From assembly GCA_964602465.1 (NCBI GenBank), contig CAZRQQ010000002.1, positions 1 to 56,400 on the forward strand: a DNA stretch of 56,400 bases, in the 5' to 3' direction. Of the stretch, positions 720 to 25,618 are shown piece by piece. Source of the DNA: an uncultured Candidatus Saccharibacteria bacterium. GTDB taxonomy: Bacteria; Patescibacteriota; Minisyncoccia; Phycocordibacterales; UBA9973. Both the position numbers and the translations under genes were made by a program. Below the pieces are notes generated by a model. The model did no database searches, had not been told where the DNA came from, and saw nothing but the letters and a program-made list of their open reading frames with translations. Each line of letters starts with the position of its first letter. The first letter of the stretch is position 1.

Positions 720-2861
720 ATGAACCGAGAGTATTCACTCGAAAAAACACGAAACTTTGGGATTATCGCCCACATCGACGCTGGGAAGACCACTACTTCA
801 GAACGCGTCCTCTACTACACCGGCATGTCACACAAAATCGGTGAAGTACACGATGGTGAGACAACCACCGACTGGATGGAGCAGGAGCGCGAACGTGGTA
901 TCACGATTACTGCTGCTGCAGTGTCGTGTACCTGGATCCCAACGTATGCCAATGGTGACAAATCCAAGCGCTACGCGTTTAACATCATCGATACTCCGGG
1001 TCACATCGACTTTACGGTGGAAGTGAAGCGCTCGCTTCGTGTGCTCGACGGTGCAGTCGTCGTCTTTGATGGTGTTGCAGGTGTGGAGCCACAATCAGAA
1101 ACCAACTGGCGCTATGCTGACGAAGCAAATGTGCCTCGTATCTGTTTCGTCAACAAACTCGACCGTACTGGTGCATCATTTGAGCATTCATATAAGACGA
1201 TCCTTGACCGCCTTTCGAAGAAAGCAGTGCGCTATCAGATCCCAATCGGACTTGAAGACAAGCACGAAGGGGTGATCGATCTCCTGCAGATGAAGGCATA
1301 CTACTTTGAGGGCGACATGGGTAACAAGGTCGTGGAAAAGGAAGTACCCGCAGAGTATATGGACGATGCCAAAAAGTATCGTGCAGAGCTCATTGAGCGC
1401 ATTGTCGAAAACGATGAAGCAGCAATGAACGCATATCTTGAAGGTACGGAGCCAAGTCTTGAAGATCTCAAAAAACTCATGCGTAAGGCAGTGATCGCAA
1501 ACCAGATCTTCCCCGTGTTTGCAGGAAGTGCGCTCAAAAACAAAGGTGTACAGCTCGTGCTCGACGCAGTGGTGGACTATCTCCCTGCGCCAACAGATAT
1601 TAAGGCGGTGACTGGAGTACACCCTGATACCGAAGAGCCGCTTGAGCGTCATGCATCTGATAGTGAGCCGTTTTCTGCACTTGCATTTAAGAGCATGAAC
1701 GATCCGTTTGTCGGACAGCTTGTTTTCTTCCGTGTGTATTCAGGTACGGTTGAATCAGGATCATACGTCTACAATCCTCGCACTGGCAACAAAGAACGCC
1801 TCTCTCGTATCGTGCGTATGCAGGCTGATCAGCGACAGGAAATCAAGAAAGTGTTTGCGGGAGAAATCGCTGCAGCGGTGGGGCTTAAAGAGGTGAAAAC
1901 ATCCGACACACTCTGTGATGAGACAAACCCGATCCAGCTCGATCGTATCAAGTTCCCAGAACCAGTGATCAACCTTCGTATCGAACCAAAGACCAAGGCT
2001 GACCAAGAAAAGATGGGTCTTGCGCTCAATCGTCTCGCCGATGAAGATCCAACGTTTAAGGTATCTACTGATCCTGAAACTGAAGAAACGATCATTGCAG
2101 GTATGGGAGAACTCCACCTCGAAATTATCGTGGATCGTATGAAGCGTGAGTTTAATGTAGAAGCAAACGTGGGCAAGCCGCAAGTGGCATACCGCGAAAC
2201 CATCACTGCTGAAGCGCAGGCAGAAGGCAAGTACATCAAGCAGTCCGGAGGTAAGGGTAACTACGGACATGTGAAAATCAAGATCAAGCCAATGGATCAG
2301 ACTGTTGATCCAAAGGATCTTCCCAAGAACGTCAAGCGCGATGGATTCTTTGAATTCATCAACAACATCAAGGGAGGTGCGATCCCGGGTGAATACATTG
2401 CGCCGATCGAAAAGGGTCTCAGAGAAGGACTTGATCGCGGTGTGGTCGCAGGCTTCAAAATGGAAAACGTCTCAGTGGATCTCTACGATGGATCATTCCA
2501 CGAAGTCGACTCAAACGAAATGGCCTTCAAGATCGCCGCATCTATGGCGCTCCAAGATGCTGCAAAGGCTGCAAAGCCGGTCATTCTTGAGCCGATGATG
2601 AAGGTAGAAGTGGTGACTCCAGAGAAATTCATGGGTGATGTGACTGGCTCACTTTCATCTCGCCGAGGTCTTATCGAAGGTATGGAAACTCGCGGTATGA
2701 ACCAAGTGGTCAACGCCGTCGTACCACTCTCAGAAATGTTTGGCTACATGACCTCACTTCGTTCTATGACCGAAGGCCGTGCTGGATTTACGATGGAATT
2801 CTTGAGATACGATATAGTACCTCAAAATGTCGCCGATACTATCATTAAGTCACGCGCCTAA
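720..2861 (+). CDS. fusA: elongation factor G
   Basis: N-terminal GTPase motifs AHIDAGKTT and DTPGHIDF. 713 aa with EF-G domain architecture throughout. Confidence 0.95.
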   Translation: MNREYSLEKTRNFGIIAHIDAGKTTTSERVLYYTGMSHKIGEVHDGETTTDWMEQERERGITITAAAVSCTWIPTYANGDKSKRYAFNIIDTPGHIDFTVEVKRSLRVLDGAVVVFDGVAGVEPQSETNWRYADEANVPRICFVNKLDRTGASFEHSYKTILDRLSKKAVRYQIPIGLEDKHEGVIDLLQMKAYYFEGDMGNKVVEKEVPAEYMDDAKKYRAELIERIVENDEAAMNAYLEGTEPSLEDLKKLMRKAVIANQIFPVFAGSALKNKGVQLVLDAVVDYLPAPTDIKAVTGVHPDTEEPLERHASDSEPFSALAFKSMNDPFVGQLVFFRVYSGTVESGSYVYNPRTGNKERLSRIVRMQADQRQEIKKVFAGEIAAAVGLKEVKTSDTLCDETNPIQLDRIKFPEPVINLRIEPKTKADQEKMGLALNRLADEDPTFKVSTDPETEETIIAGMGELHLEIIVDRMKREFNVEANVGKPQVAYRETITAEAQAEGKYIKQSGGKGNYGHVKIKIKPMDQTVDPKDLPKNVKRDGFFEFINNIKGGAIPGEYIAPIEKGLREGLDRGVVAGFKMENVSVDLYDGSFHEVDSNEMAFKIAASMALQDAAKAAKPVILEPMMKVEVVTPEKFMGDVTGSLSSRRGLIEGMETRGMNQVVNAVVPLSEMFGYMTSLRSMTEGRAGFTMEFLRYDIVPQNVADTIIKSRA

Positions 2862-2901
2862 GCAAAACGCCTGCCCTGCGAAGCTTTGGCGTAGTGGGGT
2901 G

Positions 2902-2931
2902 GCAGATACAATCATCAAATCAAGAGCGTAA
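2902..2931 (+). repeat. synonymous duplicate of the last 9 codons of fusA (ADTIIKSRA-stop)
   Basis: gca gat aca atc atc aaa tca aga gcg taa encodes the same peptide as fusA 2832-2861. It differs at 10 nt, all synonymous. Confidence 0.7.
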
Positions 2932-2945
2932 TACTCTCACAAAAG

Positions 2946-2967
2946 ATCCCTGAAAGGGGATTTTTTG
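2946..2967 (+). terminator. rho-independent terminator after fusA
   Basis: atccc-tgaaag-gggat hairpin followed by TTTTTT. Confidence 0.6.
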
Positions 2968-2968
2968 A

Positions 2969-2996
2969 TTGACAAAAATATAAAACCTGATACAAT
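2969..2996 (+). promoter_or_regulatory. sigma70-like promoter (TTGACA-16-TACAAT) for cassette ORF 3021
   Basis: Consensus -35 and near-consensus -10 elements. A 23-nt block TTGACAAAAATATAAAA is shared with 10114-10142. Confidence 0.5.
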
Positions 2997-3020
2997 AAAG
3001 CAAAAGCACAAGTAACAATT

Positions 3021-3512
3021 ATGAAGGAAGCAGAATCACTACTGACCCTCCCCAGGGTTATTTTTAACTCGATTGAACGGGTATGGATTACCGTAGAAAT
3101 GTTTGAGCCTGAATTGCTTAAAAACCATATCAGGTTTCAAAAACAAACGATCAACCTTCATGGAACACTATTTACTATTGCAGTATTGGAACAACAGTAC
3201 GCATTTGGAAAAGGTGTTTATGAATGTCAGTCCTTATACGGATTTGAACTATCCAAAGAAGAAAGAACTGCAATGTTGTTTCATTACCATGGTATTAAGG
3301 CAAACACAGAGCGTCCGTTGGTCGATCAATTTAAATTTGAGATCTACAACAATGACGCAAAGTATCAGCCGCTGTATCGTTGTGTTGAAGATCTTGCACG
3401 GCGTGCAGTTCGTAGAATATTATCTACTACTGCTGACATAACTAAGTCAAATGGGGTAATCATTCCGCTTTCTTTATCGGTTAAAGAAAAAAGAGAATTA
3501 GTAGCTGTATAG
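3021..3512 (+). CDS. hypothetical protein (AT-rich cassette between fusA and tuf)
   Basis: 163-aa ORF with its own promoter and terminator. No recognisable domain. Confidence 0.5.
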   Translation: MKEAESLLTLPRVIFNSIERVWITVEMFEPELLKNHIRFQKQTINLHGTLFTIAVLEQQYAFGKGVYECQSLYGFELSKEERTAMLFHYHGIKANTERPLVDQFKFEIYNNDAKYQPLYRCVEDLARRAVRRILSTTADITKSNGVIIPLSLSVKEKRELVAV

Positions 3513-3525
3513 ACAGTTACTACAC

Positions 3526-3560
3526 AGCCAGGTATGCACTAACCATACCTGGCTTTTTTA
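3526..3560 (+). terminator. rho-independent terminator
   Basis: agccaggtatg...catacctggct 11-bp stem followed by TTTTTT. Confidence 0.6.
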
Positions 3561-3588
3561 TTGACAATCGCTTCCCAAATGCTATCAT
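3561..3588 (+). promoter_or_regulatory. promoter TTGACA-16-TATCAT upstream of tuf
   Basis: Consensus -35 immediately after the terminator. 16-nt spacer. Confidence 0.45.
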
Positions 3589-3645
3589 GAGGGACACGCA
3601 TTTTGCGTTGTTTTTGTTTGTTTATTAGCTTAGTTCAATATTTAT

Positions 3646-4836
3646 ATGGCAGATGTATTTAAGAGAGACAAGCCACACGTAAACGTTGGTACCATCGGTC
3701 ACGTTGACCACGGAAAGACCACACTTACGGCGGCAATCCTCCATGTTTTGAACATGAAGGGAAACCAGGTGAAGCTCAAGAAGGTTGATGAAATCGACGG
3801 AGCGCCTGAAGAAAAGGCACGTGGTATTACGATTAACATTTCGCACAACGAGTACGAAACGGAGAAGCGCCACTACGCGCACATCGACGCTCCAGGTCAC
3901 GCCGACTACATCAAGAACATGATTACCGGTGCGGCTCAGATGGACGGTGCAATCATTGTGGTTGCAGCGACTGATGGTGCAATGCCACAGACTCGTGAAC
4001 ACATCCTTCTTGCAAAGCAGGTGGGTGTACCAAAGATCATCGTGTTCCTCAACAAGTGCGACATGGTTGATGACAAGGATATGATCGACCTCGTGGAAGA
4101 AGAAATCCGTGAAATCCTCGCAAAACAAGGATTTGATAAGGATTGTCCTGTGATCCGTGGTTCAGGTCTTAAGGCTCTTGAGTCTACAAGTCTTGATGAT
4201 CCATGGGCACAGAAAGTTGTAGAGCTTGCAGATGCACTCGACACCTACATTCCAGAACCAGTTCGTGACCTCGACAAGCCATTCCTTATGCCGATCGAAG
4301 ACATCTTCTCAATCGAAGGACGTGGAACTGTTGTTACTGGTCGTATCGAACGCGGTATCGTCAAAGTTGGTGAAGATATCGAAATCGTCGGTATCAAGGA
4401 CACACAGAAAACTACCGTGACTGGTGTTGAAATGTTCAACAAGTCACTCGATCAGGGTCAGGCAGGTGACAACGCAGGTATTCTCCTCCGTGGTGTCAAG
4501 AAAGAAGACCTTACTCGTGGTCAGGTCCTTTGCAAACCTGGTTCAGTGAAGCCGCACACAGAATTCGAAGGTGAAGTCTACGTCCTCAAAAAGGAAGAAG
4601 GTGGACGTCACACTCCATTCGTCAACGGCTACAAGCCTCAGTTCTACGTTCGTACCACGGACGTGACTGGTGAAGTTACTCTCCCAGCCGGAACTGAAAT
4701 GGTTATGCCAGGTGACACCGTCAAAGTGACCGTGAAGCTCGTCGTACCAGTTGCGATGGAAGACCAGATGCGCTTTGCAATCCGTGAAGGTGGCCGCACA
4801 GTCGGTGCAGGTGTCGTAACCAAGATTATTGCGTAA
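3646..4836 (+). CDS. tuf: elongation factor Tu
   Basis: [13 protein letters not shown] and DAPGHADY motifs. 396 aa, canonical EF-Tu. Confidence 0.97.
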
Positions 4837-4925
4837 GTAAAACTAATGGTGGCGTAAGAGGGACTGATCAGTAGAAACATAAGAACCCACAATCATCATC
4901 CCAAAACCTACCGAGTTCATTCACT

Positions 4926-5285
4926 ATGGCAACAAAAACACCAGCAAAGAAATCAAAGGCAGCTGCCGCAGGAGACGTGCAATCAATGCTCCGTATCCGC
5001 GTACGCGCCTATGAAAACAAAATTCTTGATGCTTCGGTAAAGCAAATCGTTGATACTGCTATTCGCCACGATGCGATGGTACGTGGTCCGATCCCGCTTC
5101 CAACTGAAATCAAGAAGTACACCGTCAATCGCTCTCCGTTCATCTACAAAAACGCCCGTGAGCAATTTGAGATGCGCGTACACAAGCGATTGATCGACAT
5201 CGTCAATCCCGCACCCAAAGTCATCGAGGCTCTCACGAACCTCTCGATGCCAAGTGGTGTCGATATCGACGTGAAGATGATGTAG
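4926..5285 (+). CDS. rpsJ: 30S ribosomal protein S10
   Basis: IRVRAYE...LPTE...FTV.RSP signature. Position after tuf. Confidence 0.9.
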
Positions 5286-5305
5286 CCTTCGGCTCCATCA
5301 AACAA

Positions 5306-5334
5306 AAAACCTCCCAGATCTGGGAGGTTTTTTG
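5306..5334 (+). terminator. rho-independent terminator after rpsJ
   Basis: aaaacctccca-gatc-tgggaggtttt followed by a T-run. Confidence 0.65.
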
Positions 5335-5344
5335 CTTTAGAAAA

Positions 5345-5767
5345 ATGTTAAGTTTATATCTATACACTACTCAGATGAATAAAAAAGATTATGCAGTTTG
5401 GGGCACTATAAAAACAAATGTTCACAACAACAAAGAGCGACCGTTCTTCCACGAACGTGAAGTGTGGTTCTGCACACTTGGTGAAAATGTTGGATTTGAG
5501 CAAGATGGGAGAGGAGAAAACTACCTACGACCAGTGGTTGTTGTGAGGAAATTTAATAACGCAGTTTGTCTTGTTGTGCCTTTAACCAAAAATCAAAAGA
5601 AAGGAATACATTACTTTTCTTTTTCATATAAAGATGATCTCGTAAGTACTGCCATTCTTTCCCAGGTTCGTCTTATCGATGCAAAGCGTCTTGATTATAA
5701 ATCAGGATTTATTTCAGAAACTGATTTTGAAGCCCTAAAACAAAAACTCAAGCAATTGATTGCCTGA
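5345..5767 (+). CDS. PemK/MazF-fold toxin-like protein (start may be 5375)
   Basis: [31 protein letters not shown]...[13 protein letters not shown]...RLIDAKRL matches the Kid/PemK/MazF motif pattern (RPVL(I/V)V, VVPVTS). No antitoxin ORF is visible upstream. Confidence 0.5.
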
Positions 5768-5956
5768 GTTTTTGACTTTTTACCCCGAAGGGAGGGCCGA
5801 AGCCATTTGTACCAATAGTATATTCCTTCCATTAAAACAAGTCAATTTTCCCCGAAGGGAACGTGGGTAGTCCCAAATGCATATCTAGTATATCAAATTC
5901 CCCGAAAGTGGATTTTTTGTTTCCCCAAAAATTTTGTATAGTACACAAAAACATCT

Positions 5957-6169
5957 ATGCCAACAAAGAGACAGTTGTGGCAAAATTGGGCATCTGAATT
6001 TGAATATTTTAGAGGACAAGATCCCAGGACATATCAACCAAAAGGTCCAGTGTCAATGACGGGAGAAGTAATCGGTACTATCCAGATTAACCCGGCCACT
6101 GGAGATTTGAGGATCATTCCTACTCCTCCTTCCTCAACTGAAGAAGATTCCCAACCAATAAACCCCTAA
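5957..6169 (+). CDS. hypothetical small protein (C-terminus ...SQPINP)
   Basis: 70-aa ORF. Its C-terminus and the downstream ~60 bp are repeated at the next gene's end. Confidence 0.3.
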   Translation: MPTKRQLWQNWASEFEYFRGQDPRTYQPKGPVSMTGEVIGTIQINPATGDLRIIPTPPSSTEEDSQPINP

Positions 6170-6226
6170 CACCGGTTTGTTTTTGCTTTTGGAGAACGGT
6201 GTGCTAGGGTAAGTAAAAAATACACA

Positions 6227-6820
6227 ATGTTCAAATTATTCAAATTACATCAGTACGGTAATGACACGTACTATGCAATCATATGTAGCAACCCACTTTC
6301 AGAGGAGTTACTCCAGAAGCTGAAAGAGGTATTTGAAAAACTATCTTCTCTTTCGCAACAGGAATATGACCATGTATGGTTTAGGGTGTCGGGTTTTTTT
6401 AAAGAATTCACTGACAGCACCTGCAATGGCCTTGTTCATGAGACTTGCTCGCACCCACTCAATGAGGGAGCAAACTTTGATGAGGCAATACGTCCTTGGC
6501 AAAAATATGATTACGTAAACAAAAAGTACGTAGACTGGTATGGACCACTCATGACCAAAGGAGATCAGGATGAAGAGTTCAAAGCCGCGTACGAGTTTTC
6601 ATACCATGCATCTTTTCGGTCGTCACTACTTGCCGCAGGAGTTCCTGAAAAGGATATAGAAAAAAGTATTATCTTTGAGGTGACCGATTGCCGTGACTGC
6701 TACGAAACGAATCCATTTGATTTTGCACAGTGGGTACTAAAACAAACAAAATCGTTGGAATATATCAATGCACTACTTCTACCACCTGCTTCGCAGAGTA
6801 CTGAACCAACAAACCCTTAA
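6227..6820 (+). CDS. hypothetical protein (C-terminus ...STEPTNP)
   Basis: 197-aa ORF. No recognised domain. Confidence 0.45.
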   Translation: MFKLFKLHQYGNDTYYAIICSNPLSEELLQKLKEVFEKLSSLSQQEYDHVWFRVSGFFKEFTDSTCNGLVHETCSHPLNEGANFDEAIRPWQKYDYVNKKYVDWYGPLMTKGDQDEEFKAAYEFSYHASFRSSLLAAGVPEKDIEKSIIFEVTDCRDCYETNPFDFAQWVLKQTKSLEYINALLLPPASQSTEPTNP

Positions 6821-6872
6821 CACCGGTTTGTTTTTTGTTACAGAAATGGTAGGGTAAGGAAAACTCATTACA

Positions 6873-7394
6873 ATGAAAGATATATTAAAGAAATTACGTT
6901 TTCCGATGCTTATATCGGCACTACTCATCTGGCCGCTGTTTGATGACTTCTTTACCAATACATCGCCTGAACTTATAGACTTTGCCCAATCAAATCGTGG
7001 TATAGCACTACGAATGTTGCTTGCAACGATAGGTTTTTTGATCGCATGTTGGAGGCTGCTAGGTATAACCTCAAAGGTCACTCGAGTATTCCCCCGATAC
7101 CCTGCGTATCGGATAGGGTGGGATGATTTTACAGTAGTGATTATTCTTTTAGGATTCGCACTACTTGTTGCCTCACTGGTAGTAGTAGTGGCCCTACTTA
7201 AAGATGTATATTTCAATACCCATCCAGGAATAGTAATAGTTAAAATTGTATACCCTTGGGCAGTAGGCAGCTGCTATGTTCTTATTGGTATTTTTGAGTA
7301 TAAGTATCCATTACTTCTCAAACAGTACGAACGACCAAATATAAGCAGAAGAGAAATCGATAAGATCCTCAAATATAAAAGCATTTTGCGGTAA
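6873..7394 (+). CDS. hypothetical membrane protein
   Basis: 173 aa with several hydrophobic helices. Confidence 0.45.
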   Translation: MKDILKKLRFPMLISALLIWPLFDDFFTNTSPELIDFAQSNRGIALRMLLATIGFLIACWRLLGITSKVTRVFPRYPAYRIGWDDFTVVIILLGFALLVASLVVVVALLKDVYFNTHPGIVIVKIVYPWAVGSCYVLIGIFEYKYPLLLKQYERPNISRREIDKILKYKSILR

Positions 7395-7407
7395 CTGAGA
7401 AAGATAT

Positions 7408-7431
7408 ATCCCCTGAAACGGGGATTTTTTA
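7408..7431 (+). terminator. rho-independent terminator
   Basis: atcccc-tgaaac-ggggat followed by TTTTTT. Confidence 0.6.
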
Positions 7432-7438
7432 TACTCAC

Positions 7439-7466
7439 TTGCGCAATTTTTGATCCCGTGTATAAT
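7439..7466 (+). promoter_or_regulatory. promoter TTGCGC-16-TATAAT restarting the S10 operon at rplC
   Basis: Consensus -10 TATAAT. Located between the cassette terminator and rplC. Confidence 0.45.
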
Positions 7467-7522
7467 CTCGGGACATTTAAAAGATCCCAAAGATCCTAAA
7501 GAATGGTCCAATACCCGCCCAG

Positions 7523-8164: not shown

Positions 8165-8168
8165 TCCT

Positions 8169-8879: not shown

Positions 8880-8885
8880 AATTGT

Positions 8886-9203: not shown

Positions 9204-9211
9204 TCACTTGT

Positions 9212-10048: not shown

Positions 10049-10072
10049 TCTCCTCAAATACGAACTCACAAA

Positions 10073-10098: not shown

Positions 10099-10113
10099 GC
10101 AATGGTTTTGATA

Positions 10114-16182: not shown

Positions 16183-16186
16183 TTGT

Positions 16187-16558: not shown

Positions 16559-16570
16559 CGAGTTACTACT

Positions 16571-16816: not shown

Positions 16817-16826
16817 TTTACATACT

Positions 16827-17354: not shown

Positions 17355-17365
17355 TACTACAAAAT

Positions 17366-17397
17366 AAAAATCACTCAATCGAGTGATTTTTATTTTT
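17366..17397 (+). terminator. rho-independent terminator after rplE
   Basis: aaaatcactc-aatc-gagtgatttt followed by a T-run. Confidence 0.65.
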
Positions 17398-17514
17398 TCC
17401 ACATCACGAGTAGGTGATTGGTGATAGCATGCTATACTATTCAGTATATTTTTGTACTGAGATATCCACTACTTTCTCTACTACACTATTTGTGTTGCGT
17501 GATATACTTTCAAG

Positions 17515-20055
17515 GTGAAATCTTTTAGTAGTTTTTTTAGTACACACAAACGAACACTTGCTGCACTTTTGTTTGGCCTCGCGTTTTCGGCGACTGTTGC
17601 GTTTGCAGTACCACCGAGTACTGAGTACAGTCCAGGCGAGACACTTGATCCAAACTGTGCGCCAGGAGATACCAACTGCGCGGTCATTCCCACCGCGTCT
17701 GCGATCGAAGATGGTGCAGTAGAAATCGCTGACTTTTCGGCAAGCGGCACACCGAGTGCAAGTACGTTTTTGCGTGGAGATAACACATGGGCAACTGTTT
17801 CGGGGAGCGGTACAGTCACGTCATTTGCATTTACCAACGGTGGCGGATTCACTGGCAACGTCAGCAACGCCACCTCAACTCCTACGCTCTCGCTTACACT
17901 TCAAGATGCTGTAGCTGATGGCTCAACTAAGGGTGCTGCAGCATTTACCGCAGCAGATTTTAATGCATCAAGTGGGCTCATTTCTATAGACTATACCAAC
18001 GGTCAGGCAGCATCAGGTTCGACCAAGGGATTCCTTACTTCTGCTGACTGGACGACGTTTAACGGTAAGGAAAGTGCACTCACGTTTTCTATTGGACTTA
18101 CACGTACTACTAATACAATCACCGTTAACACTACACAAAACATTGCCAAACTTTCAAACCTTACTTCAAACGGCTTTATTAAGACATCGGGGAGTGACGG
18201 TACGCTCAGTGTTGATACCAGTACCTATCTTACAGGTAACGAGGCTATTACTCTTTCGGGGGATATATCTGGGAGTGGTACTACCACAATCACAACTACG
18301 ATTGGATCTGGTAAAGTCACGAACACTATGCTTGCTGGCTCGATCACTGCAGCAAAACTCGTAGGAACCGATATTGCAACAGTGGGTACTATCGGTACGG
18401 GTACGTGGCAAGGCACGGTCGTGGGTGCAACCTACGGAGGTACTGGTGTAAACAATGGGTCAAACACGATAACACTTGCGGGCAATCTCGTGACGACTGG
18501 GGCGTTTAATACTACGTTTGCAGCAAGCGCGACGGGGACCTATACTCTCCCTAGTGCGACTTCGACGCTTTTGGCAAACAATCTCGGGATTAGTGGCGGG
18601 TCAACACTGGTCGGAGGAACAGGATCTGGTGAAAACCTCACACTTTCTTCAACGAGTAATGCAACTAAAGGTAAAATCATCTTCGGATCTGCCTCAGCGT
18701 ATGACCAAGTCAACGATCGATTTGGAATTGCACAGACCACCCCATTAGCAAGACTTCATGTGCAGCGTGATGCAATAGGTGCCACCCAAGATGATTCATA
18801 CGGTATCTTGTTGCAAAACTCAACGGCAGCAGCAGCGGGCGCACAGCAGTATTCACCATCGATCGTATTTGCAGGAAATGGATGGAAATCAAGTGCAACT
18901 GCAGCGAGTCAAGATGTACGGTTTCGTATTTATAATAGTCCTGTGCAAGGTGCGGGCTCCGCATCCGGGTTGTTGAATTTTGAGTCAGCACTTAATGGTG
19001 GTGCATACACCACGCTCATGACACTATCAAGTGCACAAGCATTGAGCTTAAACAGTGCCGGAACGATTTTTATTGGATCAGGTCTGGCTTTGACTAATGT
19101 TACCGCTCAAGTACCAACTGTATTTGGTGGCACTGCGGTGAGCTCATCACTTACACTTAAATCAACGAGCGGTGTCGGATCTTCGGACTTCATCCGTTTT
19201 CAGGTCGGCAACAACGGTGCAACTGAAGCAATGCGTATCATCACTTCTGGATTTGTGGGTATTGCCAATACTGCTCCTGGAGTCGCACTCCACATCGGTT
19301 CGTCGTCAACCACTGACGCTACAACACTTCTTCGTCTCCAAGACTCAAACTCTACCTGTAACTTCACTGCAGATTCTGGTGCGCCAACGTGTGGATCTGA
19401 CCGCACCCTCAAGAAAGATATCGAATCCATGGATAATGCCGACCTCCTTGCTCGGGTATCTGCACTCAATCCAGTGACCTATCGATGGCTTACTGATACT
19501 GATGATGCAAAACTCCAGCATGGGTTCATTGCACAAGAAGTAGAAGAACAATTCCCGGAGCTTGTGACCGAGAATGTCTGGGGTGATGGCACCATGCGCA
19601 AATTCCTCAATATTGGCGGTCTCATGCCGTATGCGATCGGTGCGATCAAGCAAATGAATCTCCAGATCGTTGGCATTGCAGATCTAGGCACAACCAACAC
19701 TTGGCGTGATAGCTTACTTGCATGGTTTGGAAATGCAGGCAACGGCATAGAGTCTTTCTTTAGTAAGAAGGTTACGACGAGCGAGCTTTGTGTAGGGGAC
19801 GAGACTGATCAGGTTTGTGTCACCAAAGATCAGCTTCGAACACTCTTGCAGCAGGGGGGAAGTGCATCAGTTGCGCCAATAGTGATTCCAGATCCAGTGC
19901 CAGAGGAGGCTACCGGAGAGACGCCTGAGGAGACACCGGTCGAAGAGACTGTGACCCCAGAACCAGAGGCTATAGAACCTACACCAGAGCCAGAACCGGC
20001 TCCAGAACCCACAGCCCCTGAGGCTCCGGCAGAAGCTCCTGCTCTTACCGAATAA
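17515..20055 (+). CDS. secreted tail-fibre-like surface protein with C-terminal intramolecular chaperone (peptidase S74-type) domain and Pro/Glu/Thr-rich tail
   Basis: N-terminal signal/anchor MKSF...AFSATVAFA. Long Gly/Ser/Thr-rich repetitive body. C-terminal TCGSDRTLKKDIESM...LNPVTYRW....HGFIAQEVEEQFPELV matches the endosialidase/tail-fibre autoprocessing chaperone domain. PEPEPAPEP tail. Confidence 0.7.
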   Translation: MKSFSSFFSTHKRTLAALLFGLAFSATVAFAVPPSTEYSPGETLDPNCAPGDTNCAVIPTASAIEDGAVEIADFSASGTPSASTFLRGDNTWATVSGSGTVTSFAFTNGGGFTGNVSNATSTPTLSLTLQDAVADGSTKGAAAFTAADFNASSGLISIDYTNGQAASGSTKGFLTSADWTTFNGKESALTFSIGLTRTTNTITVNTTQNIAKLSNLTSNGFIKTSGSDGTLSVDTSTYLTGNEAITLSGDISGSGTTTITTTIGSGKVTNTMLAGSITAAKLVGTDIATVGTIGTGTWQGTVVGATYGGTGVNNGSNTITLAGNLVTTGAFNTTFAASATGTYTLPSATSTLLANNLGISGGSTLVGGTGSGENLTLSSTSNATKGKIIFGSASAYDQVNDRFGIAQTTPLARLHVQRDAIGATQDDSYGILLQNSTAAAAGAQQYSPSIVFAGNGWKSSATAASQDVRFRIYNSPVQGAGSASGLLNFESALNGGAYTTLMTLSSAQALSLNSAGTIFIGSGLALTNVTAQVPTVFGGTAVSSSLTLKSTSGVGSSDFIRFQVGNNGATEAMRIITSGFVGIANTAPGVALHIGSSSTTDATTLLRLQDSNSTCNFTADSGAPTCGSDRTLKKDIESMDNADLLARVSALNPVTYRWLTDTDDAKLQHGFIAQEVEEQFPELVTENVWGDGTMRKFLNIGGLMPYAIGAIKQMNLQIVGIADLGTTNTWRDSLLAWFGNAGNGIESFFSKKVTTSELCVGDETDQVCVTKDQLRTLLQQGGSASVAPIVIPDPVPEEATGETPEETPVEETVTPEPEAIEPTPEPEPAPEPTAPEAPAEAPALTE

Positions 20056-20134
20056 CCCGGAAGTGAGCCTTGTGGCATAGTACTCCGTACAGACGCGGCT
20101 TCGTCGCAATGCCAAGATCTACTTCCGGGTTGAC
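20055..20134 (+). repeat. structured 80-nt repeat element, copy 2
   Basis: Direct repeat of 13900-13977 with a 2-nt insertion. The inner hairpin change gccgc to gtcgc keeps pairing through a G·U. Confidence 0.8.
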
Positions 20135-20158
20135 TCCGGGCGCATACTCTGATAGGAT
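20130..20158 (+). promoter_or_regulatory. promoter TTGACT-17-TAGGAT for rpsN segment, overlapping the repeat's end
   Basis: Same arrangement as copy 1. Confidence 0.4.
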
Positions 20159-20261
20159 AGGCGAGTCCTTTGGTAATCCGCACTTTTCTCTCTGAGCGAA
20201 CCTTTGTAAGGAAATTCAGAGAAATCAGTACGCGATATTCCAGAGAACATCCACAAATAGT

Positions 20262-20447
20262 ATGGCAAAGACCTCAACAGTCGTGCGCTCCCAAAAGGCG
20301 CCAAAATTTAGCACTCGACAAGTCAACCGCTGCTTCCGCTGCGGTCGTCGTCATGGCTACATGCGCGATTTCGGACTTTGCCGTATCTGCTTCCGTGAAC
20401 TTGCCAACGACGGCATGATCCCGGGTATTCGAAAGTCTTCTTGGTAA
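20262..20447 (+). CDS. rpsN: 30S ribosomal protein S14 (zinc-binding type Z)
   Basis: 61 aa with [20 protein letters not shown]. Confidence 0.9.
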
Positions 20448-20457
20448 TGAGTTTTCT

Positions 20458-20853
20458 ATGGTAACCGATCCTATTTCAAACATGATCATCTCGATGAAAA
20501 ACGGCGCACTGGTGTCCAAGGGCACCGTGGTTATTCCGTTTTCAAAGCTCAAGTACGCGATTGCGCAGTGTCTCAAAGACAATGGCTACATCGCTGAAGT
20601 GTCCAAGAAAACTGAAAAGAAAAATGTGCCAGTACTTGAGATCGAGCTCGCGTACAATGGTGGTGCGTCGCGCATCCATGATGTAAAGCGCATATCAAAG
20701 CCTTCACGCCGCACCTACCTCGGTGTGCACGATATTCACTCTGTGAAAAACGGTCACGGCATGATGGTGCTTTCTACTCCGAAGGGCATTCTTTCTGACA
20801 AGCAAGCGCGCAAGGAGCAGGTCGGCGGAGAAGCGTTGTTTATGATTTGGTAA
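20458..20853 (+). CDS. rpsH: 30S ribosomal protein S8
   Basis: DPI...I..I.N motif at the N-terminus. Confidence 0.93.
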   Translation: MVTDPISNMIISMKNGALVSKGTVVIPFSKLKYAIAQCLKDNGYIAEVSKKTEKKNVPVLEIELAYNGGASRIHDVKRISKPSRRTYLGVHDIHSVKNGHGMMVLSTPKGILSDKQARKEQVGGEALFMIW

Positions 20854-20860
20854 TACATAT

Positions 20861-21394
20861 ATGAGTAGAATTGGAAAACAACAACTACAGATCCCAAGCA
20901 ACACCGAAGTATCATACGCAGGTGGTGTACTTACGGTGAAAGGTCCACTTGGCACGCTCACCAAAACCCTTCCTGAATTTGTAACGATCACGATCGCAGA
21001 TGGTCTTGTGACCTTTGCGCCAAAGGGTGACGAACCATTTGATGTGGCGATCTGGGGCACGTACGCATCGCATACCAAGAACATGATCGCAGGGGTAAAT
21101 ACTCCCTACACCAAGAAGCTCATTCTCGAAGGAGTCGGATTCAAGAGTGAGGTCAAAGGCAAAGAGCTTCACCTTGCGCTCGGCTTCTCACACCCAGTTG
21201 TTGTTGCGATCCCGGAAGGCTTGACCGTCGTGGCAGAAAAGAACAATATAACCATTACAGGTATCAACAAAGAACTCGTCGGCCAGTTCACTGCACATGT
21301 GCGTGCGCTCAAGAAGCCTGAGCCATACAAGGGTAAGGGATTCCGTTACGATACTGAAACTATCCGACGCAAGGCCGGCAAGAAGACTGCATAA
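20861..21394 (+). CDS. rplF: 50S ribosomal protein L6
   Basis: SRIGK motif at the N-terminus. Position. Confidence 0.93.
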   Translation: MSRIGKQQLQIPSNTEVSYAGGVLTVKGPLGTLTKTLPEFVTITIADGLVTFAPKGDEPFDVAIWGTYASHTKNMIAGVNTPYTKKLILEGVGFKSEVKGKELHLALGFSHPVVVAIPEGLTVVAEKNNITITGINKELVGQFTAHVRALKKPEPYKGKGFRYDTETIRRKAGKKTA

Positions 21395-21409
21395 TTTTTT
21401 TAAACGTAT

Positions 21410-21757
21410 ATGTCACGATCAACTCCACAAGAAAAGAGAATTCGCAACAAGCGCAAGATCCGCGCGAAGCTTTCTGGTACCGATGTGCGCCCTCGCCTTT
21501 CAGTATTTCGCTCCAACAATTTCCTCTACGCGCAGCTTATCGATGACACCAAGGGTGTGACGATCGCAGCGGTAAATGATACAGACAAGAAGAAGGGAAC
21601 CAAAGTTGACGGCGCAGTCGCTGCAGGGAAAGCACTCGCTGCTGCGGCAATTGCAAAGAAGATCAGTGCAGTCGTCTTTGATCGCAATGGTTTCAAGTAC
21701 GCAGGTCGTATCAAGGCATTTGCGGACGCTGCGCGTGAAGGCGGACTTACTTTTTAA
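21410..21757 (+). CDS. rplR: 50S ribosomal protein L18
   Basis: PRL.VFRSN motif. Confidence 0.9.
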   Translation: MSRSTPQEKRIRNKRKIRAKLSGTDVRPRLSVFRSNNFLYAQLIDDTKGVTIAAVNDTDKKKGTKVDGAVAAGKALAAAAIAKKISAVVFDRNGFKYAGRIKAFADAAREGGLTF

Positions 21758-21763
21758 TACACT

Positions 21764-22357
21764 ATGACCACTCCAACCAATCCAACAACAGAACACAAGC
21801 GCACTGATACACGACGACCTCGCCGCGAGGGGGGTAAGACATTTGCAGATCGCGTCAAAGATGTAGATCAAAAGATTCTCGATATTCGTCGCGTAACCCG
21901 TGTCGTTGCTGGTGGACGCCGCATGAGCTTTGCTGTATCGATGATCATTGGAGACAAGAACGGTGTCGTTGGTGTCGGTACCGGAAAGGGAAATGACACT
22001 GCAGTTGCGATCACCAAGGCGCTGAAGGATGCAAAGAAAAACGCAATCAAGATCAAGCGTACTGAAAAGCATTCGATCGCACACAGTGTGTCTGCAAAAT
22101 ACAATGCGTCCCGCGTCATGCTTTTTCCAAATAACGGTAAGGGACTTGTGGTGGGTGCAGCACTTCGCGACATCCTCGTGTTCGCTGGTGTCAAAGACGT
22201 GTCGGGTAAGGTCGTCTCAGGCAGCAAGAACAAGCTCAACACTGCTCGTGCATGTATCAAGGCACTTGGTGCAGTGAGTACGAAATATATTTTTGGCAGT
22301 GCCGCAAAAGTTGAACCGGTCGCAGCACAACCTGAATCATCAGAAGCAGCCGCATAA
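21764..22357 (+). CDS. rpsE: 30S ribosomal protein S5
   Basis: dsRBD plus S5 C-terminal domain. Directly followed by rplO, with no rpmD. Confidence 0.92.
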   Translation: MTTPTNPTTEHKRTDTRRPRREGGKTFADRVKDVDQKILDIRRVTRVVAGGRRMSFAVSMIIGDKNGVVGVGTGKGNDTAVAITKALKDAKKNAIKIKRTEKHSIAHSVSAKYNASRVMLFPNNGKGLVVGAALRDILVFAGVKDVSGKVVSGSKNKLNTARACIKALGAVSTKYIFGSAAKVEPVAAQPESSEAAA

Positions 22358-22362
22358 CTACT

Positions 22363-22797
22363 ATGATTACACTCTCTCGCAAAACTAAAAATAAGAAATC
22401 AAAACTCGTTGGTCGTGGTGGAACCCGTGGCAAGACCTCAGGTCGTGGTACGAAAGGGCAGAAGGCGCGCGCTGGGCACCGCATTCGTCCTGCCATCCGT
22501 GACATGATCAAGAAGTATCCGAAGCTTCGCGGACGCGGCAAAAACAGCAACAAATCCATCGCCGTTCGTCCTGCAGTCGTAAACCTTGGCGACATCGCAA
22601 CGGTATTTACAAAGGATGCATCTATTACTCCTTCCGCACTTCTTGCAAAGAAACTCATTCGCCGAACAGCAGGGGTCCTTCCAAAGGTGAAAATCCTCGC
22701 AGGAGGCGAACTCACGCACGCAGTTATGGTGTATGATTGTGAGGTAACTCCAGCAGCAAAGGCAAAGATCGAAGCAGCTGGCGGAAGCGTCAAATAA
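22363..22797 (+). CDS. rplO: 50S ribosomal protein L15
   Basis: GRG.GSG.GKT.GRG motif. Confidence 0.88.
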   Translation: MITLSRKTKNKKSKLVGRGGTRGKTSGRGTKGQKARAGHRIRPAIRDMIKKYPKLRGRGKNSNKSIAVRPAVVNLGDIATVFTKDASITPSALLAKKLIRRTAGVLPKVKILAGGELTHAVMVYDCEVTPAAKAKIEAAGGSVK

Positions 22798-22811
22798 CAC
22801 GATCAACTATC

Positions 22812-24083
22812 ATGCAAGGTTTCGCACGAAAATTCACCCTTCTCTTTACGGACAAAACACTTCGCACCAAGATCCTTTTTGTGATCGGGGTGCTCTTTGT
22901 GTTTCGATTTCTTGCAACGATCCCTGTGCCTGGTGTCGACATTGCACGACTCAACCAATTTCTCGCATCCAACCAATTTCTCGGACTCTTCAATGTCCTC
23001 TCTGGTGGTGGACTTTCTTCATTCTCCATCGTCATGCTTGGTGTCGGTCCATACATCACCGGTTCAATCATCATGCAGGTGCTTTCTATGATGGTACCGT
23101 CTATCAAGGAGCTCATGCAGGAAAGCGGGGAAGCAGGACGCCGCACGTTCAACCAGTACATCCGTCTCATCACGGTACCGATTGCAGTCCTTCAGGCATT
23201 TTCATTCATCAAGTACTTGCAGAGTCAGGGTGCGATCGGCGCGCTTTCAGGTGGTGCACTTATCACCAACATCATCATTATCACCGGTGGCTCCATGCTC
23301 CTTTTGTGGCTTGCAGAACTCATCAATGAATTTGGGATCGGCAACGGCACAACACTCATCATCATGGCAGGTATCCTCGCAGAAGTTCCTTCCAAGATCT
23401 CACAGTTTCTTTTCACACTTACCCCAGACCAAATCCCGACGGTGCTCGTGTATCTGGCAATCGGACTCCTTGTGATCGCAGGTATCATCTATGTCTATGA
23501 AGCAGAGCGTCCAGTCAAGGTAACGTATGCACGACAAGTGCGTGGTATCCGTACACTCGGGGGCAACGAAAGCTACCTTCCACTTCGTCTCGCACAGGCT
23601 GGCGTCATGCCGATCATCTTTGCGTCGTCCCTCCTTTTGTTCCCACAGTTTCTCGCAGGACTCTTTGCGGCATCTACCCACTCGACACTTATCTCGGTCG
23701 GTCGCGCGCTCACCTCATTCCTTCAAAATACGACACTGTACTCCGTCGTCTACTTCGTGCTTGTCGTCTTCTTCACCTATTTCTATACGGCAGTAACCTT
23801 TGATCCAAAGCAGATCGCAGACAACCTACAGAAAAATGGTGCATTCGTGCCCGGCATTCGCCCAGGTGACGCAACCAACGATTACCTCGCAACGATCGTC
23901 ACCCGCATCACGCTTGTCGGATCACTCTTCCTTGGTATCGTTGCAGTGCTCCCGCTTATCATCCGCACCACGACTGGTATCACCGCATTTGCGATCGGCG
24001 GTACCTCTATCCTCATCGTTGTATCAGCAGTCATCGACCTCACCCGACGTCTCAGTGCGCAAGTAGCGCTTCAAGAGTACTAG
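22812..24083 (+). CDS. secY: preprotein translocase subunit SecY
   Basis: 423 aa with 10 predicted TM helices. Position after rplO. Confidence 0.93.
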   Translation: MQGFARKFTLLFTDKTLRTKILFVIGVLFVFRFLATIPVPGVDIARLNQFLASNQFLGLFNVLSGGGLSSFSIVMLGVGPYITGSIIMQVLSMMVPSIKELMQESGEAGRRTFNQYIRLITVPIAVLQAFSFIKYLQSQGAIGALSGGALITNIIIITGGSMLLLWLAELINEFGIGNGTTLIIMAGILAEVPSKISQFLFTLTPDQIPTVLVYLAIGLLVIAGIIYVYEAERPVKVTYARQVRGIRTLGGNESYLPLRLAQAGVMPIIFASSLLLFPQFLAGLFAASTHSTLISVGRALTSFLQNTTLYSVVYFVLVVFFTYFYTAVTFDPKQIADNLQKNGAFVPGIRPGDATNDYLATIVTRITLVGSLFLGIVAVLPLIIRTTTGITAFAIGGTSILIVVSAVIDLTRRLSAQVALQEY

Positions 24084-24175
24084 GAAGTAGTCGATAGTCT
24101 TTAGACTATAAGCGGATAGAAATAAAACTGCGACCTCTACTAACGACTATAGACTAACTACTATATACTAGCTGT

Positions 24176-24766
24176 ATGGCAACAAAGGCATATATCTTCA
24201 TCGGACAGTCTGGTTCTGGAAAGGGCACGCAGGCAGCGCTTCTCGAGCGATCTATACAGGCAAAGAGTCCGACGGGATCGATTCTCCATTTCGAAACTGG
24301 CAATATCTTCCGCTCATTTATTGAGACTGATTCATATACTGCACAGGAAACCAAGAAAGTCATGGAGCAGGGAGTTCTGCCGGCATCGTTTATCGGTGTG
24401 CATGTCTGGAGTCACGAACTCATCGCAAGTTTTACTGGACAAGACGCCGTGATCATTGACGGTACTCCACGTGTTGCAGAAGAAGTACCGATCCTTTTGT
24501 CCGCATCCAAATTTTATGGATGGGAGACAACGGTGATCTTTATTGATGTCGGAGACACATGGGCAGATGAACGACTTCGCGGCCGCGGTCGAAGTGATGA
24601 TATGGTTGACCACGAACGACAATCACGTCTCAAGTGGTTCCACGACAATGTCATGCCCGCAGTCGAACTTCTCAAGGTTTCTCCTGAAGTGAAATTTCTT
24701 GCAGTAAATGGTGAGCGAACGATCGAGGAAATTCACGAAGAAATATGCGCTTCGCTTAAGTTATAA
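24176..24766 (+). CDS. adk: adenylate kinase (short-LID form)
   Basis: P-loop GQSGSGKGTQA. Position between secY and map. Confidence 0.75.
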   Translation: MATKAYIFIGQSGSGKGTQAALLERSIQAKSPTGSILHFETGNIFRSFIETDSYTAQETKKVMEQGVLPASFIGVHVWSHELIASFTGQDAVIIDGTPRVAEEVPILLSASKFYGWETTVIFIDVGDTWADERLRGRGRSDDMVDHERQSRLKWFHDNVMPAVELLKVSPEVKFLAVNGERTIEEIHEEICASLKL

Positions 24767-24853
24767 AGTTCATAAAGCTGAAAGTTTGTAAAGCAAAGCA
24801 CAAGGGCGTGATTACTTTATGAACTTTACAAACTTTATAACTTTCAACTCACT

Positions 24854-25618
24854 ATGATAATCATCAAAACCGAAAGTGAAATAGAACGTTTGAAAAAGGG
24901 AGGTCCCATACTTGCCAATATTTTGCGTGAGGTTGCCAAAGCCGTAAAGCCAGGGGTTACGACCAAATCGCTTGATGAGCTCGCGTACAAGTTGATAACG
25001 GAAGCAGGGCACAAGCCGGCGTTTTTGCACTATAAACCCGAAGATGCACACAAGCCATATCCAGCGAGTTTGATTACTTCAGTGAACGAAGAAGTGGTGC
25101 ACGGCATCCCAGGAGACTATGTGCTCAAAGACGGTGATATTATTTCACTGGATCTCGGGCTCAACTACGAAGGAGTCTTTCTCGACCATGCGATCACTGT
25201 GCCAGTCGGCAAAATCAATGCCAAGGACAAAGAACTTCTTGCGGTGACACAGCAAGCGCTCGAAGTCGGTATCGAAGCAATTGGCTCTGGTGGTACGACA
25301 GGTGACATCGGCCACGCGATCGAAACATTTGTGAAGCCGTACAAGCTTGGTATCGTGCGTGATCTTTCGGGTCACGGTGTTGGTCGCGAGATCCACGAAG
25401 ATCCCTATGTGCCCAACTACGGCAAAAAGGGGAAGGGGGCAAAGCTCGTGCCGGGCATGGTGATCGCGATTGAGCCGATGCTTACTCGAGGTTCAGAAGA
25501 GATCATCCTCCTCAAAGACGGCTACACCCTCATCACTTCTGATAAATCCCGCAGCGCGCATTTTGAACATACGGTACTCATCAACGACAAAGGCGAGCCA
25601 GAAATTTTGACGAAGTAG
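24854..25618 (+). CDS. map: type I methionine aminopeptidase
   Basis: Pita-bread fold motifs (D..D....H, E..E). Confidence 0.93.
   Translation: MIIIKTESEIERLKKGGPILANILREVAKAVKPGVTTKSLDELAYKLITEAGHKPAFLHYKPEDAHKPYPASLITSVNEEVVHGIPGDYVLKDGDIISLDLGLNYEGVFLDHAITVPVGKINAKDKELLAVTQQALEVGIEAIGSGGTTGDIGHAIETFVKPYKLGIVRDLSGHGVGREIHEDPYVPNYGKKGKGAKLVPGMVIAIEPMLTRGSEEIILLKDGYTLITSDKSRSAHFEHTVLINDKGEPEILTK

Follow-up and report, generated by a model that had tools for sequence, protein, structure and literature searches.

Predicted promoters split the str-S10-spc ribosomal gene cluster of a Parcubacteria-type bacterium into blocks separated by variable gene islands

In textbooks the S10-spc cluster serves as the prime example of a gene order kept frozen for billions of years, and phylogenies of the candidate phyla radiation (CPR) that use "16 syntenic ribosomal proteins on one contig" are based on it. 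Flexible DNA at a fixed position beside conserved genes is exemplified by the SAR11 hypervariable region next to the rRNA genes, and free-standing GIY-YIG homing endonuclease genes sit between conserved genes in T-even phages. For translation genes, "invasion-separation" of concatenated operons has been described in Gammaproteobacteria and Bacilli (Brandis 2021, PMC8046335; Brandis et al. 2019, PMC6735719); it is sporadic and falls mostly between the classical operons, with 163 events in 204 genomes (PMC8046335). Overlaps of terminator and promoter, described in Salmonella, were proposed to hold concatenated operons together (PMC6735719). In archaea, an Asgard survey found the S10-spc cluster split into segments near uS14/uS8, with uL3-uL4-uL23-uL2 separable (PMC10833476). 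Here we analyze the str-S10-spc cluster carried by a 56,400-nt stretch of a metagenome-derived contig (CAZRQQ010000002.1, positions 1 to 56,400; "the window"), in which islands of non-ribosomal genes lie between blocks of ribosomal genes.

In this lineage the str-S10-spc genes probably no longer form a single operon. On the + strand, from 720 to 25618, the genes run fusA, tuf, rpsJ, rplC, rplD, rplW, rplB, rpsS, rplV, rpsC, rplP, rpsQ, rplN, rplX, rplE, rpsN, rpsH, rplF, rplR, rpsE, rplO, secY, adk and map. This canonical order, with other genes intervening, had been noted in a preliminary description, and open reading frames (ORFs) and Pfam confirm it; core gene identities come from Pfam for all except rplO, assigned from its own sequence and tblastn synteny. 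Gene content is also canonical apart from the missing rpmC (uL29) and rpmD (uL30). The tight or overlapping junctions expected of S10 and spc as single transcription units are not found in the window, which has gaps of 2.2 kb at rpsJ/rplC, 4.0 kb at rplB/rpsS and 2.9 kb at rplE/rpsN, each with a predicted terminator and promoter. There are 14 non-ribosomal ORFs, one at fusA/tuf, four at rpsJ/rplC, seven at rplB/rpsS, one at rplE/rpsN and one after map (Table 1). The flanking units are collinear, and each has its own promoter and terminator, terms that here and throughout denote predictions from consensus and hairpin sequences. We consider it probable that the operon was split first and that islands then formed at the points of fission, each a tolerated hot spot defined by selection.

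The same junctions are open in many relatives. We surveyed 80 GTDB-representative loci found through rplB (the genome set), mapping the window proteins and measuring all junctions, together with 80 metagenome contigs, some of which recur in the genome set. Across these 160 Parcubacteria/Minisyncoccia contigs the four window junctions and secY/adk hold 0.3–8 kb of variable DNA. Gaps larger than 300 bp occurred at fusA/tuf in 25/29 loci of the genome set and 14/16 of the metagenome set, at rpsJ/rplC in 17/56 and 15/41, at rplB/rpsS in 31/61 and 21/48, at rplE/rpsN in 21/46 and 9/26, and at secY/adk in 6/13 and 4/10. Each of the remaining 18 junctions had only 0–2 such gaps, rplP/rpsQ (the uL29 slot) excepted. 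What the preliminary description saw as the invasion of one genome is a pattern common to a large clade.

A neighbor-joining tree set an ingroup of ~54 loci, the window included, against an outgroup (L058–L080 in our numbering of fetched loci; Harrisonbacteria-like and others) whose junctions are short or overlapping, −10 to 112 bp at rplB/rpsS and 1–107 bp at rplE/rpsN. Taking rplB more than 61% identical to that of the window as a proxy for the ingroup, we found rplB/rpsS occupied in 31/42 ingroup genomes and 21/29 ingroup metagenome contigs, against 0/19 and 0/19 in the outgroup; spacers under 30 bp were absent from the ingroup and numbered 12 and 9 in the outgroup. At rplE/rpsN, occupancy was 21/33 and 9/14 in the ingroup against 0/13 and 0/12, with spacers under 30 bp again absent from the ingroup and numbering 7 and 10 in the outgroup. 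Such counts reflect one shift at the level of the clade, not a large number of independent events.

Empty sites indicate the order in which the changes may have come. Empty ingroup spacers measure 57–262 bp, and most hold a near-consensus promoter (TTGACw or TTTACT, 16–17 nt, TGnTAnnAT). Promoter scores of at least 10/13 were reached by 8/11 empty spacers at rplB/rpsS and 10/12 at rplE/rpsN, against 2.3% and 6% of shuffles. In most, the distance to the downstream gene is kept, at ~45–75 nt before rpsS and ~125–140 nt before rpsN, and those empty sites that were aligned retain a leader as well. That promoters restart the downstream ribosomal segments, as first proposed, is thus borne out by predicted promoters conserved in relatives. 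The order of events implied at the same time, with promoters following insertion, is not: since promoters stand at most of the empty rpsS and rpsN sites in relatives, they would have preceded the cargo rather than repaired an insertion.

Comparison with the six closest genomes (rplB 85–89% identical) showed sharp boundaries. Nucleotide homology ends within ~45 bp past the stop codons of rpsJ (5285), rplB (10048) and rplE (17354), and restarts at the promoter or leader of tuf (3608), rplC (7408–7538), rpsS (13973–13988) and rpsN (20148–20234); the promoters and leaders themselves align among these genomes. The rpsN leader, ~100 nt long (20159–20261), has a stem of nine pairs, all with compensatory changes among 20 sequences, and may be a site of autoregulation by a ribosomal protein such as S8 or S14. 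In the rpsS leader (14007–14030) a conserved AGCUC/GAGCU hairpin is followed by a U-run, and the arrangement looks like an attenuator. The rplC leader (7467–7522) contains an invariant motif, ATGGTCCAATACC at 7503–7515, common to L001 and L003–L006, and the tuf promoter is followed by a hairpin leader common to L004 and L006. Known RNA leader families were rejected for the rpsS, rpsN and rplC leaders, which had no Rfam match; over 1–26500, Rfam gave nothing at gathering score and only terminator-like noise at E ≤ 1.

Upstream of the islands, the ribosomal blocks are closed by predicted A-tract/hairpin/U-tract terminators (z −4.6 to −9.3). The preliminary description had each insertion bringing its own terminator. 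In support, terminator-like sites are in excess in the window (35 vs 18.2±4.1 in shuffles) and cargo units carry their own near-consensus promoters and terminators; the 846-aa gene of island 4, however, lacks a canonical terminator and is followed by a 73-nt hairpin instead. Because the ribosomal blocks themselves end in terminators, these were not simply brought by the inserts. Within island 3, promoter-like sites precede the 133-aa and both paralogous ORFs (11495, 11980, 12560), and terminators follow the 215-aa, the 133-aa and both paralogous ORFs (11467, 11949, 12530, 13142). T-runs of terminators abut the next −35 (TTGACA) at 2960–2974, 3549–3566, 11482–11500, 11968–11985 and 12548–12565; in the second of these, GGCTTTTTTATTGACA, the T-run of the island 1 terminator adjoins the tuf −35. 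The terminator-plus-promoter module is repeated as a 46-nt family of 63–74% identity, also present 5′ of fusA.

We propose the following course of events. New sigma-70-type promoters would have arisen in the short spacers 5′ of rpsS and rpsN in a large Parcubacteria/Minisyncoccia clade, the rpsN promoter coming with its structured leader and the rpsS promoter with a small hairpin leader; the same gain would have taken place 5′ of rplC in sub-lineages, and tuf would have its own promoter more widely. With the downstream block freed from read-through and translational coupling, whatever lies between the last stop codon of one block and the −35 of the next would become selectively free. The spacers would then act as permissive sites, where genes may be gained, tandemly duplicated, truncated and lost while ribosomal blocks, terminators and promoters stay fixed. 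The window would now consist of these units: fusA; the 163-aa orphan; tuf-rpsJ; island 2; rplC-rplB; island 3 with a diacylglycerol kinase (DAGK) gene and a GIY-YIG gene; rpsS-rplE; the 846-aa surface protein; and rpsN-map with a 142-aa ORF. Most would be bounded by a terminator whose T-run adjoins the next −35. Among cargo ORFs of at least 100 aa in relatives, 118/170 are co-directional with the cluster and 52 (31%) are antisense; dependence on read-through would forbid the latter, which are tolerable only where the blocks further downstream are transcribed from promoters of their own.

Several points weigh against fission followed by passive accumulation. Our baseline consisted of the other junctions of the cluster, against which "merely permissive" and "more island-prone than average" are inseparable. 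The tree is a simple neighbor-joining one of four proteins, rplC-rplD-rplW-rplB, and since the loci are phylogenetically non-independent, the Fisher significance of the ingroup-outgroup difference at rplB/rpsS (2e-8 for genomes, 4e-7 for metagenomes) is overstated. Promoter-like sites are not enriched in the window (28 vs 29.0 in shuffles), so that their placement and conservation alone are informative, and the promoter score is low at a few cargo-bearing sites (L009, L019, L026, L028). Passive tolerance also does not explain a pair of 73-nt palindromes, treated below.

Table 1. Blocks, islands and predicted signals of the ribosomal gene cluster in the window
Feature	Position (nt)	Strand	Content and remarks
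fusA single-gene block	720–2861	+	Pfam EF-G domains; upstream terminators 600–619 and 662–676; own terminator hairpin 2940–2967 (z −4.6)
Island 1 (fusA/tuf)	2969–3560	+	promoter-like site 2969–2996 (TTGACA-16-TACAAT); orphan 163-aa ORF 3021–3512 (GC 0.38); terminator 3526–3554
tuf-rpsJ block	3561–5338	+	promoter-like site 3561–3588; tuf 3646–4836; rpsJ 4926–5285; terminator 5300–5338 (z −5.7)
Island 2 (rpsJ/rplC)	5345–7431	+	PemK/MazF-like toxin 5345–5767; 70-aa ORF 5957–6169; 197-aa ORF 6227–6820; 173-aa ORF 6873–7394 (hydrophobic, membrane-like by sequence inspection); terminator 7408–7425
rplC-rplD-rplW-rplB block	7438–10096	+	rplC 7523–8164; rplD 8169–8879; rplW 8886–9203; rplB 9212–10048; terminator 10069–10096 (z −4.9)
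rplC promoter-like site	CTTGCG (7438)-17-TATAAT (7461–7466)	+	common to L001 and L003–L006
Island 3, variable part (rplB/rpsS)	10108–13171	+	197-aa ORF 10185–10778; 215-aa ORF 10804–11451; 133-aa ORF 11541–11942
Island 3, paralogous ORFs	11980/12028–12525 and 12605/12626–13159	+	
DAGK gene	13188–13580	+	Pfam DAGK_prokar 4e-32; conserved resident beside rpsS
GIY-YIG gene and palindrome copy A	13637–13973	+	stand-alone 87-aa GIY-YIG gene 13637–13900; 73-nt palindrome 13901–13973
rpsS..rplE block	13973–17396	+	rpsS, rplV, rpsC, rplP, rpsQ, rplN, rplX, rplE (14039–17354); terminator 17361–17396 (z −9.3)
rpsS promoter-like site	13973–14000	+	TTGACA-16-TACTAT with TG
Island 4 (rplE/rpsN)	17421–20130	+	weak promoter-like site 17421–17450; 846-aa protein 17515–20055; palindrome copy B 20056–20130
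rpsN..map block	20130–25618	+	rpsN, rpsH, rplF, rplR, rpsE, rplO, secY, adk, map
rpsN promoter-like site	20130–20158	+	TTGACT-17-TAGGAT with TG
Terminal add-on	25633–26093	+	142-aa ORF 25633–26061 (GC 0.28), 14 bp past map; bidirectional terminator 26071–26086

Some of the cargo is old. The DAGK gene lies beside rpsS in at least 12 relatives (L002–L004, L006, L009, L018, L020, L022, L023, L025, L087 and L088), its identity tracks that of rplB, and L087 and L088 (84% rplB) show the minimal state rplB-DAGK-rpsS; on this distribution the gene is ancestral at rplB/rpsS. Two homologues of the island 2 197-aa ORF (53–54% identity) were found, each between rpsJ and rplC in a JGI metagenome contig. 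In one of them, L083, rplC is 63% and rpsJ 84% identical to the window, and the 197-aa gene 53%. Its presence at the same junction makes this AT-rich gene an old resident. It shares its 3′ end (32 nt, 94%) with the 70-aa ORF of the same island. The possibility that intervening genes are ancestral, raised in the preliminary description against its own account, is therefore partly realized, for DAGK and for the 197-aa gene in these two contigs, and remote homologues of other window cargo stand at the same junctions in L004, L005 and L014. The genome and metagenome collections held no relative above 89% rplB identity, re-assemblies of the same genome aside, so gains in the window can be dated only to after the split from genomes at 85–89% rplB identity.

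Other cargo shows decay and duplication. By a full HMMER scan, the 215-aa ORF, which has a GTG start, corresponds to the C-terminal ~210 residues of a 656–694-aa family with an N-terminal HATPase_c_3 (GHKL) domain. After rplB in L014 (12082–14698) come two genes, the first for a 216-aa homologue of a 197-aa window ORF and the second for an intact 661-aa GHKL member; the window therefore holds a truncated remnant of this two-gene module at the same junction. The L014 module has no convincing match to PADLOC defence-system models. The two paralogous ORFs of island 3 are a tandem pair whose promoter and terminator were duplicated too; L004 carries a weakly similar ORF at that junction.

Database matches to the window cargo are few. 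Most of the ORFs matched nothing in Pfam, PADLOC or PHROG, the PHROG matches being MazF and tail fibre only. A defence island was rejected, as neither the window cargo nor the L014, L004 and L009 modules had a convincing PADLOC match. The product of the first gene of island 2 has the MazF/PemK toxin fold (PF02452, 3.7e-11; PHROG MazF-like, 2.4e-16); no ORF lies between the rpsJ terminator and the toxin gene, and the downstream 70-aa ORF has no Pfam match. The 846-aa protein combines a hydrophobic N-terminus, signal-peptide-like as read from the sequence, with a Peptidase_S74 chaperone domain (tail-fibre-like). Large Peptidase_S74 proteins recur in islands, at 17515–20055 of the window, 2437–3195 and 10884–14867 of L030 and 7912–11997 of L036, and do so at different junctions (rplE/rpsN, rpsG/fusA, rplB/rpsS).

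In relatives, 205/265 gap ORFs are singletons. Recognizable gap families include DAGK, PG_binding_1 secreted proteins, glycosyltransferases, polysaccharide deacetylase, pyruvate kinase, M17 aminopeptidase, OMP decarboxylase, HisG, L10/L12, AbiEii, nucleotidyltransferase pairs, ResIII helicases and an RNA methyltransferase; by Pfam the cargo falls into housekeeping, envelope and toxin-antitoxin genes. Near-complete Pfam listings for 109 cargo ORFs of relatives contained one rve/DDE transposase and no tyrosine or serine recombinase; for cargo at rplE/rpsN and secY/adk, Pfam assignments are those among the best 25 matches of a pooled listing.

Differing content at the same positions in relatives, and sharp breaks of homology at gene ends, would also be produced if ribosomal genes served as homology arms for double crossovers that, once DNA has been taken up, bring in cassettes of other strains or species. 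Two further observations fit such recombination-anchored islands. Relatives' islands have GC on average 4.5 points under that of their ribosomal flanks (76/86 lower; Wilcoxon 5e-12), and contig ends cluster after rplB and rplE, as expected of heterogeneous populations. The sequence divergence of shared cargo argues the other way. Against flanking rplB, cargo identities were 63 vs 97.5%, 73 vs 92%, 68 vs 85%, 47 vs 81% and 36 vs 71%, and in this limited sample all eight shared pairs were far more diverged than rplB. Cross-lineage exchange was rejected since no cargo pair was more alike than its flanks, and no recent transfer between lineages is visible in the sample. Cargo sharing follows sister relationships, and low GC is found in old residents as well and tracks the host, the 197-aa homologue having GC 0.33 in a context of ~0.34–0.41. 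We regard cassette exchange as unlikely, though with some chance of being right; cargo always more diverged than rplB points to genes that are inherited vertically and diverge fast, and that are also gained and lost.

The contig ends can be described separately. Among L001–L164, right-hand ends fell after rplB in 18/36 cases, a count somewhat inflated by the rplB-anchored search, after rplE in 6/36, and after any other gene in 0–3. Left-hand starts of the same metagenome-assembled genome (MAG) and metagenome contigs fell at rplC (11) or tuf (16). The ends after rplB and rplE suggest assembly breaks at islands, which is relevant to the recovery of ribosomal markers.

Base composition had been taken as a sign of foreign origin. 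The 24 core genes have GC 0.496±0.022 and GC3 0.519±0.040, and the 13 cargo ORFs of at least 80 aa have GC 0.408±0.059 and GC3 0.369±0.072. The cargo is AT-rich as described in 11/13 of these ORFs, the exceptions being DAGK (0.527, core-like) and the 846-aa gene (0.492). It is not distinctive, however: the rest of the window is a patchwork of genes at ~0.50 and 0.33–0.44 GC, so that low GC marks a class of non-core genes generally and is not specific to inserts. We accordingly rejected recent foreign DNA as the source of the cargo, given this common AT-richness, the same-junction homologues of the 197-aa ORF and the truncated 215-aa remnant. A second long AT-rich block lies at 41754–55000, with genes of GC 0.31–0.44 that include a 2028-aa ORF (48580–54666); the low-GC class is thus not limited to the ribosomal islands.

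Two of the islands end in the same unusual element, a branched palindrome of 73–75 nt (−38.6 kcal/mol, z −6.4) whose copies are 95–97% identical. Each copy begins immediately past a cargo stop codon and finishes in the −35 (TTGAC) of a ribosomal promoter, copy A linking the GIY-YIG gene to the rpsS promoter and copy B the 846-aa gene to the rpsN promoter. There is no third copy in the 56.4-kb window, none by exact or blastn-level matching in the 162 fetched loci except L081 (same genome), and no match in an exact 21-mer search of metagenome contigs; a dispersed repeat was rejected on these results. The palindrome may be a small mobile element, or else a hairpin with insulator or terminator function that gene conversion has copied. 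In L002 and L003 the DAGK stop codon directly adjoins the rpsS −35, so the GIY-YIG gene and palindrome of the window are extra relative to these loci. There is a slim chance that the spacers are actively used, with the 73-nt module inserted or copied between cargo stop and ribosomal −35, possibly moving with small GIY-YIG genes. If so, ribosomal promoters would be a defined landing or insulation site, and episymbiotic CPR bacteria would have a dedicated "expression platform" inside the ribosomal cluster for loading and swapping genes for surface proteins, toxins and orphan products.

A more general form of targeting would have site-specific mobile elements (homing-endonuclease genes, integrative cassettes, small palindromes) directed to the junctions, for example just 5′ of the −35. 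Besides the palindromes, which end exactly at the rpsS and rpsN −35, the GIY-YIG gene of island 3 invites this explanation: its 87-aa product has the catalytic domain (PF01541, 3.6e-14, residues 1–72). Small stand-alone GIY-YIG genes occur at three junctions, DAGK/rpsS in the window (13637–13900), fusA/tuf in L062 (6049–6300, a pseudogene) and rpsG/fusA in L011 (1537–1788). The MazF toxin of the window, AbiE modules in relatives and the single insertion-sequence transposase at a junction in a relative could be read in the same way. Yet Pfam finds no DNA-binding or recognition domain attached to the 87-aa protein. Next to the GIY-YIG genes of L011, L014, L015 and L062 a similar palindrome is missing, and for this reason the pair of gene and palindrome was rejected as a mobile unit. 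The palindrome is absent from the searched collections as described, and the cargo includes ordinary housekeeping genes.

Of the 14 cargo ORFs in the window, none has a domain of an integrase, a transposase or a relaxase by Pfam, and repeat comparison and inspection revealed no flanking direct repeats, att sites or target-site duplications at the window islands. The closest tRNAs in the window are at 36 and 40 kb, none near the islands. An integrative mobile element or classical genomic island was rejected for want of a recombinase, flanking repeats or a tRNA/tmRNA target. An integron cassette array was rejected as well: there is no integrase, the palindrome follows only 2 of ~14 ORFs, and by inspection its ends, CCCGGAAG...CTTCCGGG, do not match the attC core RYYYAAC/GTTRRRY. 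Targeting is therefore improbable in our judgement, and of the two options first offered, a targeting mechanism or a tolerated hot spot, the evidence favors the hot spot.

The remaining biological alternative holds that cargo has a function connected with the ribosome or with the control of growth rate and is retained for co-expression. The linkage of DAGK and rpsS is stable over a wide clade, the gaps of relatives include L10/L12, RNA methyltransferase and nucleotide-metabolism genes, and window cargo genes have near-consensus promoters. We think this very improbable, as most cargo is unshared, several cargo ORFs are truncated or duplicated fragments, and predicted terminators insulate cargo units from the ribosomal blocks; moreover two of three window ORFs searched, those of 163 and 184 aa, matched only themselves among 5.8e9 proteins in a word-indexed search of limited sensitivity. 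Chimeric joining of foreign fragments to a ribosomal contig during assembly or binning, conceivable for a metagenome-derived contig whose composition shifts at each island, has a negligible chance of being the explanation, since a contig from another assembly of the same genome (L081, in ENA) spans two islands and matches window 3668–15035 at 99.99% (one mismatch in 11,368 bp), so that the layout is no chimera or misassembly, and since the same architecture, with orderly terminator-promoter modules at the junctions, occurs in ~100 independent contigs from many studies.

The nearest relatives are MAGs labeled Saccharibacteria, Nomurabacteria, Kaiserbacteria, Paceibacterota and Minisyncoccia. 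From these labels the host is placed among the tiny-celled CPR bacteria of Parcubacteria/Minisyncoccia type; "Saccharibacteria" on related MAGs is evidently a submitter default. CPR bacteria as a whole are missing uL30, and some of their lineages have lost uL29 (PMC9297842). In the window the rplP/rpsQ spacer (15893–15934) is 40 bp and holds no uL29 gene, and the slot is also empty (6–71 bp) in the closest relatives and several other sub-clades, being ~200 bp or more elsewhere; the empty slot fits the reported lineage-specific loss.

The cluster is shortened at both ends relative to most bacteria (window 1–719 and 25619–27204). An unknown ORF and two terminators, not rpsL/rpsG, lie 5′ of fusA. 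At the 3′ end, the gene after map had been counted among the insertions between cluster genes, and it actually stands at the end of the cluster: past this 28%-GC ORF and its bidirectional terminator come convergent rplT and infC, not infA-rpmJ-rpsM-rpsK-rpsD-rpoA-rplQ. Elsewhere in the window, a tRNA-Ile with anticodon TAT (UAU) is encoded at 36034–36111, an uncommon bacterial means of reading AUA. The tmRNA gene (28856–29251, − strand) directly adjoins smpB (29265–29738, − strand), and a LOOT RNA match at 56300–56400 is cut by the window end.

Operon fission followed by island formation, if correct, bears on several matters. A large Parcubacteria clade has the cluster systematically split at rplB/rpsS and rplE/rpsN, with 0.3–5.7 kb of variable genes there in ~65–75% of genomes. 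Between them the loci show tight junctions, spacers with only a promoter, and islands, a natural series in which operon breakage can be studied, and they point to unrecognized ribosomal-protein leaders as candidate autoregulatory sites. The islands may explain why contigs often end after rplB or rplE, which matters for marker recovery and binning, and they show where orphan, toxin and surface genes collect in reduced genomes. A full-text literature search of incomplete coverage found no description of the split-cluster pattern in CPR bacteria.

Among described systems, invasion-separation resembles the present case in the terminator-promoter overlaps between units and in that long-distance horizontal transfer is not required. 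It differs in where and how breaks occur. Here they fall inside the E. coli-type S10 and spc operons, at rpsJ/rplC, rplB/rpsS and rplE/rpsN, and they are clade-wide, accompanied by new promoters and leaders, with ~65–75% of genomes occupied and cargo that differs between genomes. As in archaeal clusters, the uL3-uL4-uL23-uL2 section acts as a separable unit; unlike the archaeal segments, which are scattered over the genome, the blocks here stay side by side in collinear order, separated by small islands, and the cluster breaks before uS14, not after it.

Free-standing GIY-YIG genes of the T-even type share with that of the window an intergenic position between conserved genes and presence or absence among relatives. 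The window gene, by contrast, encodes an 87-aa catalytic domain alone, makes up 264 bp of ~10 kb of cargo, and comes with no identified cleavage-site logic. Islands of the SAR11 type are like those described here in their fixed position, conserved flanks, differing content, lower GC and load of envelope or surface and toxin-antitoxin or defence-type genes. Unlike them, the islands of this cluster give no evidence of cassette exchange, measure 0.3–8 kb, and are interleaved four or five to a single ribosomal gene cluster.

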